Source: Candidatus Borrarchaeum weybense
Lineage (GTDB): Archaea > Asgardarchaeota > Sifarchaeia > Borrarchaeales > Borrarchaeaceae
NCBI GenBank assembly: GCA_019057385.1
Contig: JAHQJS010000004.1
Coordinates: 662,508 to 681,546, forward strand
Length of the DNA stretch: 19,039 nucleotides
Reading direction: 5' to 3'
The notes beneath the pieces were generated by a model. It made no database searches. It had not been told where the DNA came from and was given only the letters and a program-made list of their open reading frames with translations. This document shows, in pieces, positions 10,335-13,628 of the stretch; position 1 is the first letter of the stretch; each line of letters begins with the position of its first letter. The position numbers were made by a program, and so were the translations under genes.

Positions 10335-10667
10335 CCGTCTGGAGGAAAATTCGCCTCTTGACGAAAACCCCTTCTAATTCCAACATTCAATTTTTTGACA
10401 TTTCTTGTTTACTACTTTCATTTATCACCTCTTTATTGAATGTTCAATATTTTTCACAAATATTGTTCATTTGTCTTATTAATTACCTCTAGATCGTTCA
10501 TTTAATAGATCAAATTGAATACCAACATTAAATCGTTCATTTATAAATCTTTCGCTATAGAAGATGATCGAATTATATCAAAAAAGATATTTTTTTACAT
10601 TTCTATTTCAAAAAGAGTTGTATATTTCACTTACGTGTTACAAATAGGCTAAAAAGTTCTAGTAGGC

Positions 10668-10741
10668 GATTTGGTGAACTTTGGCTAAGTTATCAAGAAC
10701 AAGAAATCATCTTTTTTTTCTTTCTTATTCCCTACCAAATC
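10668..10741 (-). promoter_or_regulatory. candidate SECIS element of selenoprotein gene A (3'-UTR, overlapping the terminal TGA)
   Basis: Minus strand: GATTTGGTAGGGAATAAGAAAGAAAAAAAAGATGATTTCTTGTTCTTGATAACTTAGCCAAAGTTCACCAAATC. Closed by perfect 8-bp GATTTGGT/ACCAAATC; 69/74 positions identical to the element after gene B. Confidence 0.75.
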
Positions 10742-11216
10742 ACTTATTTAACTTTTCAAGCACTTCGAATAATGCTTTATTCTTCGGAATGTCGCTCATA
10801 GAATCACTGTAATAAGCATATTGAATGATTCCCTCTTTGTCGACTATAAGTAGCGCCGGCATGCGTCCTAATTTTCGAATTTTGAATTCCTGATGCAGTT
10901 TTTTGGCAACTTCCTTATTGTTATCGTAATATATCGGAAATTTTTCTTTCGCGTACTTTTGTTCCATCTTAATAGCATTTTCAAGCGTGTCTACCAAAAT
11001 TGGATAAATAATCGTGTCTAATTGCTCAAATTGCTCTTTATCTTTAGCAAAACTGCGAACTTGTGCTCTGCAATATGGTCAGTTGATGCTTCTAAGTAAA
11101 GCAACGATAACATTATTCTTTTCGATGAAGTCTTTGATGTTTACGTTTTCTTCCCTTGAATTAGGCAGAGAAAATTCTTCAATTTCCTTCCCTACCATTT
11201 CAAATTTATCCTTCAT
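10740..11216 (-). CDS. selenocysteine-containing peroxiredoxin-like / AhpC-TSA thioredoxin-fold protein A (UxxC)
   Basis: Reading TGA at 11079-11081 as Sec gives 158 aa: MKDKFEMVGKEIEEFSLPNSREENVNIKDFIEKNNVIVALLRSINUPYCRAQVRSFAKDKEQFEQLDTIIYPILVDTLENAIKMEQKYAKEKFPIYYDNNKEVAKKLHQEFKIRKLGRMPALLIVDKEGIIQYAYYSDSMSDIPKNKALFEVLEKLNK*. No other in-frame stop and no frameshift. The TGA falls at the expected N-terminal redox position of a CxxC-type peroxiredoxin-like motif. Confidence 0.88.
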
Positions 11217-11333
11217 TCGTCTCTCTCTCAAGTTCTCCGTCCTTTGAATTTACTTTGATTCTGTCATTACAGTGTTTTTAATCTTTATTGATGCGGTATA
11301 CGGCCCTTTTGACTTAAAAATAAGAATTCTGGC

Positions 11334-11406
11334 GATTTGGTCAACTTTGGCTAAGTTACGAGAACAAGAAATCATCCTTCTTTTCTTTCTTATTCCCTAC
11401 CAAATC
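11334..11406 (-). promoter_or_regulatory. candidate SECIS element of selenoprotein gene B (3'-UTR)
   Basis: Minus strand: GATTTGGTAGGGAATAAGAAAGAAAAGAAGGATGATTTCTTGTTCTCGTAACTTAGCCAAAGTTGACCAAATC. It starts 5 nt after the TAG stop of gene B and is nearly identical to the element after gene A. Confidence 0.75.
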
Positions 11407-11411
11407 AGTTA

Positions 11412-11891
11412 CTACTGTAGATTTCTAATTGCTTCTAACAATTCCTCAATTTTAGGATTGTCCTTTCCAGAATCACCATAGTAAGCATATTGTATGATTC
11501 CTTCTTTATCTACTATGAGGACGGCTGGCATTCGTCTATATTTGTCATCTACTAATTTAACTTCCTGGCCGAGTATTGTTAGTACTTCTTTCGATTCATC
11601 ATAGTACACAGGAAACTTACCTTTTGCATATTTTTGCTCCATTTCAATGGCATTTTTGAGTACATCCTCCGTAATTGCAATGATGATGGTATTTGACTGA
11701 TCAATCTCATCAAAATGATTAGCTAAGCTCTGGATGTGCTTTCTTCAATGTCCTCAGGCCAGTCCTTTTTTCAATGATATGACTATGTTTTTTCGTCCAA
11801 GAACTTCTTTAATATTTACCGTTTCGCCTCTCGAATTAGGCAGGGAAAACTCCTTGATGTGTTTTCCTATCATATTAAATTTATCTTTCAT
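11412..11891 (-). CDS. double-selenocysteine peroxiredoxin-like / AhpC-TSA thioredoxin-fold protein B (UxxU)
   Basis: Reading TGA at 11754-11756 and 11745-11747 as Sec gives 159 aa: MKDKFNMIGKHIKEFSLPNSRGETVNIKEVLGRKNIVISLKKGLAUGHURKHIQSLANHFDEIDQSNTIIIAITEDVLKNAIEMEQKYAKGKFPVYYDESKEVLTILGQEVKLVDDKYRRMPAVLIVDKEGIIQYAYYGDSGKDNPKIEELLEAIRNLQ*. Codon 46 aligns with Sec-46 of A and codon 49 with Cys-49 of A. Confidence 0.85.
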
Positions 11892-13370: not shown

Positions 13371-13628
13371 ATAAAATCCAAAAGATGAAATCTCTTAATT
13401 AAATCCCATTTTTTTCATTTCCTATTTTTTATCACACATAGATTTTGTGGTATTACGCTTCTTCTTATTTAAGAAACTTTCATTTCTAGTTTTAAACACA
13501 TTACACTCATAATTTAAACTAAACTTAAAGTAAAACAATGGACAGCTACCCCAATAATATCATAACTTATATCTAAAAACACAAGAAAAGTAAAAAGGAT
13601 TAGAAGTTTTTTGTCGGATTGATTTTGA

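Follow-up and report, generated by a model that had tools for sequence, protein, structure and literature searches.

Selenocysteine (Sec)-containing proteins of the peroxiredoxin (Prx)-like type have been described for Asgard archaea as well as for bacteria. For Lokiarchaeum, PrxL.2 with one Sec residue and PrxL.1 with two Sec residues were reported by Mariotti et al. 2016 (PMC4989117), who already suggested a diselenide for PrxL.1. In Sifarchaeia, tRNA-Sec, SelB and a Prx selenoprotein were reported by Sun et al. 2021 (PMC9723677), and a 2026 review (PMC13188914) lists a 'Prx-like thiol:disulfide oxidoreductase, UxxC, UxxU'. Bacterial Prx-like selenoproteins were treated by Kryukov & Gladyshev 2004 and Zhang & Gladyshev 2008, as cited by Mariotti et al. 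and in that review. The published lokiSECIS, a Sec insertion sequence (SECIS), consists of AUGA, a 9-base-pair (bp) stem, a loop of 11 nucleotides (nt; AAAAA....AG), the return strand and GA, and often overlaps the stop codon. In the present study, two adjacent Prx-like genes, referred to as genes A and B, and the RNA structures in their 3' untranslated regions (3'UTRs) were analyzed in a stretch of 19,039 nt from Candidatus Borrarchaeum weybense (assembly GCA_019057385.1, contig JAHQJS010000004.1, positions 662,508 to 681,546), hereafter the window. To our knowledge, an AUGA_GA quartet defines all Asgard and eukaryotic SECIS elements described so far. Bacterial Sec decoding makes use of a hairpin immediately 3' of the UGA. 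Based on the results presented below, genes A and B very probably represent tandem, separately equipped selenoprotein genes of an Asgard lineage (Sifarchaeia/Borrarchaeales), whose UGA codons would be recoded under the control of a 3' junction RNA.

Gene A (10740..11216, minus strand) starts with ATG at 11216-11214, terminates with TGA at 10742-10740 and encodes a Prx-like selenoprotein of 158 amino acids (aa) featuring the redox box U46-P-Y-C49. Translation of this interval yields 158 codons plus the stop, and the sole internal stop is the TGA of codon 46 (11079..11081, minus strand), located in the context ...VALLRSIN(TGA)PYCRAQVRSF..., with the Cys49 codon TGC at 11070-11072. A first-pass annotation of the window had proposed exactly this single in-frame TGA in a frame running from 11216 to 10740 and had interpreted it as a Sec codon; the translation reproduced the former, and the domain assignment, the Cys-containing homologues and the conservation of the TGA bear out the latter. 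In the mechanical list of open reading frames (ORFs), the frame appears as two entries, 11079..11231 (50 aa, with the TGA as its end) and 10740..10997 (85 aa, TTG start), the second one being the 85-aa C-terminal ORF mentioned in that annotation. As it had anticipated, gene callers see a broken gene, since public gene calls on DNA identical to gene A are limited to fragments of 85 aa and 45 aa. However, gene A is not 'hidden', as had been assumed. With X at the TGA position, its product exactly matches the entry 'Sifarchaeia_GCA_019057385_U_2' in supplementary file 79 of Huang, Xiao & Zhang 2024 (PMC11227280). The gene A selenoprotein is already known down to the exact sequence, and in this respect the analysis confirms published annotation and adds nothing new.

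With Sec replaced by Cys, the gene A product is assigned to the Pfam families AhpC-TSA (PF00578, 9.7e-21) and Redoxin (PF08534, 1.7e-15). The closest solved structures by sequence are 2ywn and 2cx3 (E-values 5.5e-8 and 5.4e-7), both BCP/PrxQ peroxiredoxins from the Protein Data Bank, with which gene A shares the overall fold and a conserved arginine: R118, invariant in the family, aligns with the conserved Arg of 2ywn in ...AKRAVFVIDKEG. Because of this sequence homology to solved peroxiredoxins, the fold of gene A is regarded as fixed and is predicted to be theirs. The redox box differs. In alignments with 2ywn and 2cx3, U46 is placed on the Thr/Ser of T/S-x-x-C and C49 on the peroxidatic Cys. 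Moreover, the canonical motif P-x-x-x-T/S-x-x-C is replaced by R-S-I-N-U-P-Y-C in gene A, where Pro is absent and position -4 is occupied by Arg (compared to AAFTQVC in 2ywn and AAFSPVC in 2cx3). Since Sec takes the Thr/Ser position of the solved enzymes, the earlier statement that the catalytic residue at this site is normally Cys applies to the CxxC Prx-like subfamily and fails for AhpC/Prx proper. As the canonical motif is altered, peroxidase activity should not be assumed for gene A, and whether the products of A and B might act as peroxidases is regarded as uncertain. Bacterial Prx-like thiol:disulfide oxidoreductase selenoproteins possess the same domain and the same U-x-x-C box as gene A.

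Gene B (11412..11891, minus strand, stop codon TAG at 11412-11414) directly adjoins gene A upstream on the same strand and encodes a tandem paralogue of 159 aa (PF00578 AhpC-TSA, 1.4e-16; PF08534 Redoxin, 1.7e-14), the two proteins being 55% identical. In gene B, TGA codons occupy both redox-box positions, namely codon 46 (11754..11756, minus strand) and codon 49 (11745..11747, minus strand), in the context ...KKGLA(TGA)GH(TGA)RKH..., which corresponds to the box U46-G-H-U49. In the Prx-like set published in 2024 (PMC11227280), gene B is represented by the entry 'Sifarchaeia_GCA_019057385_U' as MKDKF...GLAXGH only, cut at the second UGA after 48 residues. The two-Sec form of the MKDKF subfamily thus seems to be under-annotated. 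Homologous loci and proteins are denoted below by numbers with the prefixes L and P, respectively; both TGAs of gene B are also present in L006, L021 and the upstream gene of L011. PrxL paralogues with differing redox boxes recur as tandem pairs: UxxU with UxxC in the window and in L011, UxxA with UxxC in L005, and UxxC with CxxC in L028. In these recurrent pairs, each Sec gene is followed by its own 3' element.

In total, TGA was found at the first redox position of 21 distinct archaeal gene copies of the MKDKF subfamily, i.e., in all 19 copies read in fetched loci and in the two copies of the window; for this count, L038 is unread across the Sec codon, and L001-L003 repeat the locus of the window. 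The same codon is TGA in three bacterial relatives (relatives from Anaerolineae and Desulfuromonas, 34-35% identity). The 17 loci taken from genome and metagenome collections in addition to the window feature TGA at the first redox position throughout. Close orthologues differ by synonymous and non-synonymous substitutions on both sides of the TGA, with the frame unbroken, and protein identity across the TGA amounts to 53-96% among orthologues, the locus of Candidatus Borrarchaeum yapensis being 96% identical to gene A. Cys residues, which the first-pass annotation had expected opposite the TGA, occur as genuine forms in P0137 (...GLMCPFCRAH...) and P0187 (...GLMCPVCRQH...). Furthermore, Asp occupies the Sec column in P0158, P0160 and P0164, which are of the Helarchaeales type with the box D-P-F-C. 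Together, these data speak against a chance interruption and support the interpretation that the interrupted frame of gene A is a real gene for a Sec-containing Prx-like protein.

Within the orthologues, the box occurs as U-x-x-C, as U-x-x-U (in the three genes sharing both TGAs with gene B) and as U-x-x-A (L017-L020 and the upstream gene of L005). The U-P-Y-A members, L017-L020 and the upstream paralogue at 1800-2270 of L005, are without a second redox residue. With UxxC, UxxU, UxxA, CxxC and DxxC, the redox box of the subfamily is unusually plastic.

Directly behind each of the two genes, a three-way-junction RNA representing a putative SECIS was identified on the minus strand, at 10668..10741 for gene A (minimum free energy (MFE) fold with z = -3.2, covariance-model match and covariation) and at 11334..11406 for gene B (MFE fold and covariance-model match). 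In the gene A element, helix P1 is formed by 10734-10741 pairing with 10668-10675 (GAUUUGGU/ACCAAAUC), P2 by 10721-10732 pairing with 10695-10706 around the loop GAAAAAAAAGAUGA at 10707-10720, and P3 by 10687-10691 pairing with 10677-10681 around the loop AGCCA at 10682-10686. The terminal UGA of gene A overlaps P1, its G and A being the first two paired bases, and the gene B element begins 8 nt past the first base of the TAG; across all copies, the element starts 1-11 nt past the first base of the stop codon. The two copies of the window are 94-96% identical, compared to 55% for the A and B proteins, and are thus more conserved than the coding regions. As read from the sequence, T5 tracts follow the gene A element after approximately 12 nt (10651..10655, minus strand) and likewise lie behind the gene B element (11316..11320, minus strand); these are likely archaeal transcription terminators. 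Because a separate T5 tract follows each element, the two genes appear to be equipped with one element each.

Independent single-sequence MFE folds gave the same three-way junction for most copies. P1 is near-invariant (GAUUUGG/CCAAAUC), P2 comprises 11-12 bp with an A-rich loop of 11-15 nt mostly ending in (A/G)UGA(G), P3 is AACUU-AGCCA-AAGUU, and the joining strands measure 0-1 nt and 1-3 nt. In L015, the stem sequences are wholly different, with architecture and P3 loop unchanged. P1 and P2 were recovered unaided by RNAalifold on a plain MAFFT alignment. A covariance model (R1), based on ten non-Sifarchaeia, quartet-less copies, matched the window exactly twice, at 10664-10745 (61 bits, E-value 3e-12) and at 11330-11410 (60.2 bits). 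In the model-based alignment, 95.6% of the cells formed pairs compared to 34-58% with the partners slid, and both-sided changes were observed at ten pairs, the observed values being reached in none of 500 shuffles. Compensatory changes affected eight of the 11 modelled P2 pairs. Since P1 is nearly invariant, its support consists mainly of one U-A to A-U swap and some changes from G-C to G-U.

The distribution of the element follows the Sec forms. By means of the covariance model, it was detected behind 20 Sec-form genes, and it was identified by folding behind the one in L015. Second copies were found by the model behind the tandem paralogues in L005 and L011, and one copy in L038. No element was detected with the model after the Cys forms of L027 and of the downstream gene in L028 or after the Asp form of L029. 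Both situations meet in L028, where the Cys-form gene devoid of the element lies directly downstream of a Sec-form gene that has it. In L030, the element follows a Sec-form fragment, and only 66 nt of sequence are available behind the Asp-form gene. This restriction to Sec forms corresponds to the classical signature of a SECIS. Unlike in bacterial Prx-like selenoprotein genes, no hairpin of the bacterial type was found 3' of the Sec UGA in A and B, where folds of 70-80 nt gave z = -0.69 (gene A) and +1.52 (gene B). Within the window, there were no further selenoprotein genes and no further copies of the element. Searches against Rfam retrieved no match at gathering score in the window and only noise at E-values up to 10 on the element; canonical lokiSECIS loci remained likewise unmatched.

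Genes A and B resemble the described Asgard PrxL genes in the AhpC/TSA fold, in the U-x-x-C or U-x-x-U box without T-x-x-C, and in the position of the 3'UTR Sec signal directly after the stop codon. They differ in that their subfamily (MKDKF...IN-U-PxC) is only 23% identical to PrxL.1 of Lokiarchaeum GC14_75 (...GAW-U-YY-U...), and in that their 3'UTR element is devoid of the AUGA_GA quartet. Regarding the latter, neither AUGA nor the rarer GUGA is present 5' of the upper stem, the strand joining P1 and P2 measuring 0-1 nt in all copies, and the GA (or AA) 3' of the upper stem is unconserved, with GA behind gene A and in L011, AA in some copies and GU, UA or UU elsewhere. A pattern scan recovered the FrhD control described below and, in a stricter version, the Loki-type PrxL controls. 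The euryarchaeal SECIS, characterized by two G+C-rich stems on either side of a GAA_A bulge and by three consecutive G-C pairs in the upper stem, was not recognized either, as the folds show A+U-rich P1 and P2 helices with neither a bulge nor a run of G-C pairs.

Several alternative placements of a core were considered and rejected. Fitting the lokiSECIS pattern (AUGA, 9 bp, 11 nt, 9 bp, GA) in every register gave no pairing, and scanning revealed nothing conserved within 400 nt. The (N)UGA preceding P1 is unsuitable as a core, since its G and A pair with the 3' UC/UU (G-C changing to G-U) and the preceding base is unconserved. A circularly permuted core or 'K-loop', GA...AUGA on top of P2, fits the Sifarchaeia copies and is unconserved in the U-x-x-A group (L017-L020, L012, L038); it is further weakened by the fact that canonical elements have the same loop, and it was dropped as the preferred interpretation.

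Canonical elements from related loci place the quartet-less element in context. FrhD (VhuD) of a Borrarchaeales relative (L024, 4326-4372) features the canonical hairpin AUGA-C-UCUUGAAAC-GUAAACAUUGUG-GUUUCAAGA-A-GA overlapping the UGA stop codon. This hairpin serves a split HdrA-FrhD pair upstream. Likewise, all four Loki-type PrxL loci fetched (L031, L034, L036 and L037) possess a canonical element, e.g., AUGA-UUCGAAUAU-AAAAAAAUGAG-AUAUUCGAG-GA. In L034, the MFE fold of the canonical element likewise adopts a three-way junction, whose joining strands contain UGA and GAC. The canonical elements of L034 (1547-1621), L031 (1476-1551), L036 and L037 also feature a third, conserved hairpin (GACCU-CGCAA-AGGUU), which follows the GA closely on its 3' side. 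The quartet of L034 is located at the junction in a k-junction-like manner; the literature descriptions found mention a stem-loop only.

Model R1, although built from quartet-less copies, aligned the canonical L034 element from end to end (25.7 bits, E-value 2e-4), followed by L037 (16.1 bits) and L031 (15 bits), these E-values being rough. Moreover, the apical loops GAAAAAAAAGAUGA and AAAAAAAAAUGAG of quartet-less copies resemble the canonical loop AAAAAAAUGAG. Shared with lokiSECIS are the location at the stop codon, the upper stem of 9-12 bp, the A-rich loop of 11-15 nt ending in (A/G)UGA(G), the lower helix and, for PrxL genes, the small third hairpin 3' of the upper stem; the difference lies in the missing AUGA 5' and conserved GA 3' of the upper stem. 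The end-to-end model alignment and the common architecture argue for homology of the element behind A and B to the lokiSECIS of PrxL genes. Judged from these comparisons, it is predicted to be a lokiSECIS homologue that keeps the lower helix, upper stem, apical loop and third hairpin, and in which the AUGA_GA quartet is absent.

Regarding the in-frame TGAs, two other explanations were weighed. Genes A and B might be pseudogenes or truncated genes carrying nonsense mutations, in line with standard gene callers returning fragments only. However, the TGAs are located exactly at redox-box positions, where they are kept in about 20 loci of different lineages including bacteria, and the frame remains open with the protein identities across the TGA given above. 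Moreover, several independent assemblies yielded the same sequence. Assembly GCA_019058535.1 and a Logan assembly both encode an identical copy of a neighbouring 577-aa protein (ILVD_EDD family). Decay of these genes is considered extremely improbable. Genome-wide reassignment of TGA (e.g., to Trp or Gly) or read-through by a near-cognate tRNA (Cys or Trp) without Sec could be suggested by dozens of full-length homologues in databases (e.g., P0121-P0136) showing Trp at the Sec position. However, these originate from short contigs called with genetic code 4, and P0121 (...SINWPYC...) also reads its terminal TGA as Trp (...LNKWFGRE). Such code-4 entries could pass for real Trp homologues. In the window, TGA is the terminal stop of five of the 19 genes, and no internal TGA occurs in the 17 genes other than A and B. 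Furthermore, the codon is confined to redox-box positions where homologues have Cys, and the lineage is documented as Sec-using. Reassignment or read-through is thus rated as very improbable, though slightly less so than gene decay. Since the TGA is conserved in an open frame, Cys and Asp homologues exist and TGA serves as a stop codon, pseudogene formation, sequencing error and code reassignment are regarded as excluded.

Regarding the RNA, the junction might not be a Sec signal at all, but a 3'UTR element with another role, such as stability, termination or regulation, the true SECIS being located elsewhere or having another form. The AUGA_GA core of every described Asgard SECIS is absent, the conservation of P1 and the P3 loop extends to their sequence and is not confined to structure, and T tracts follow the element, all of which is compatible with such a role. 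Nevertheless, the element is present behind all Sec forms and missing behind the Cys and Asp forms, also where the two kinds share a locus, and it sits immediately at the stop codon, as lokiSECIS does. It also shows full-length homology to canonical lokiSECIS, including the common apical loop AAAAAAAUGAG, and neither the 400 nt downstream nor the region right behind the UGA contained any other conserved or canonical structure. A role unrelated to Sec is therefore considered unlikely. The assignment of the element as a functional SECIS that lost, or never had, the AUGA_GA kink-turn quartet, made for the MKDKF...U-P-x-C subfamily of Sifarchaeia and Lokiarchaeia, is tentative and is given a little less than even weight.

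Several points weigh against the interpretation of A and B as Sec-decoding genes served by the junction RNA. Since the quartet is absent, the SECIS role is inferred by association only, and the pattern scan returned no canonical AUGA...GA hairpin at a distance of up to 400 nt from genes A and B or from most orthologues. The near-invariance of P1 and the P3 loop points to a function and does not indicate which one. The alignment used to assess covariation was fitted to the model, and the negative controls comprise the three Cys/Asp loci with enough downstream sequence. No tRNA is encoded in the window, so support for the Sec machinery of this assembly is drawn from the literature. Finally, we know of no experimental demonstration of Sec insertion for any Asgard PrxL.

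For the tandem selenoprotein genes with 3' junction RNAs, which remain the preferred interpretation, the following mechanism is proposed. The junction RNA of approximately 75 nt would direct recoding, with Sec-tRNA(Sec) being brought by the archaeal EFSec to UGA46, and in gene B also to UGA49, approximately 340-350 nt upstream of the element. Recoding of UGA46 in gene A would create the U-P-Y-C box and allow for selenenylsulfide chemistry, and recoding of both UGAs in gene B would result in U-G-H-U with a possible diselenide. The terminal UGA of gene A, which lies inside P1, would be read as a stop. The products would represent thiol:disulfide oxidoreductases of the thioredoxin fold, cycling through a selenenylsulfide (A) or a diselenide (B).

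Previous work covers part of this picture. In the supplementary files of Huang, Xiao & Zhang 2024 (PMC11227280), assembly GCA_019057385 also has entries among FrhA, FrhD (2), HdrA (2), an AhpF-N-homologue and SelD; Sec, denoted X, was confirmed for the HdrA and FrhD entries, and the remaining files hold entries named alike. According to the same study, 85.1% of the genes have eSECIS-like structures and more patterns may remain unidentified. A full-text search found no description of a three-way-junction SECIS in archaea, the per-gene SECIS table of the 2024 study (Table S4) being outside its reach. Beyond the literature found, the present analysis contributes, for this lineage, a complete reading of gene B with both Sec residues, the repeated occurrence of tandem paralogues with differing boxes, and the quartet-less junction apparently derived from lokiSECIS. 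The last of these is presented as a lead rather than a result.

Two additional features of the window were recorded. A loose AUGA-stem-loop-GA match is located at approximately 13377-13418 (minus strand), between 13370 and 13629, with a 10-bp stem containing one mismatch and a 15-nt loop that is not A-rich; upstream of it, there is no ORF containing a UGA. With six such matches on both strands of the window, it probably arose by chance. Moreover, an imperfect 34-nt direct repeat (74% identical, 99 nt apart) is situated at 2083-2215, in the Pro/Gly-rich part of a 153-aa ORF (1851-2312).

The locus illustrates how selenoprotein genes are mishandled in public data, namely by split gene calls, by code-4 Trp at the Sec position and by truncation of a two-Sec paralogue in a curated set. 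Within one lineage, the canonical AUGA...GA hairpin accompanies HdrA/FrhD and a homologous quartet-less element accompanies PrxL. If the latter functions as SECIS, Asgard Sec decoding would have no strict need for the quartet, which forms the link between Asgard and eukaryotic SECIS elements. In that case, the element would be recognized through the apical loop, the near-invariant P1 (GAUUUGG/CCAAAUC) and the P3 loop (AGCCA), and in gene B a single element would serve two UGAs three codons apart. A natural quartet-less variant occurring beside canonical elements would offer a direct comparison on the requirements of archaeal SECIS elements and on their binding without SBP2.

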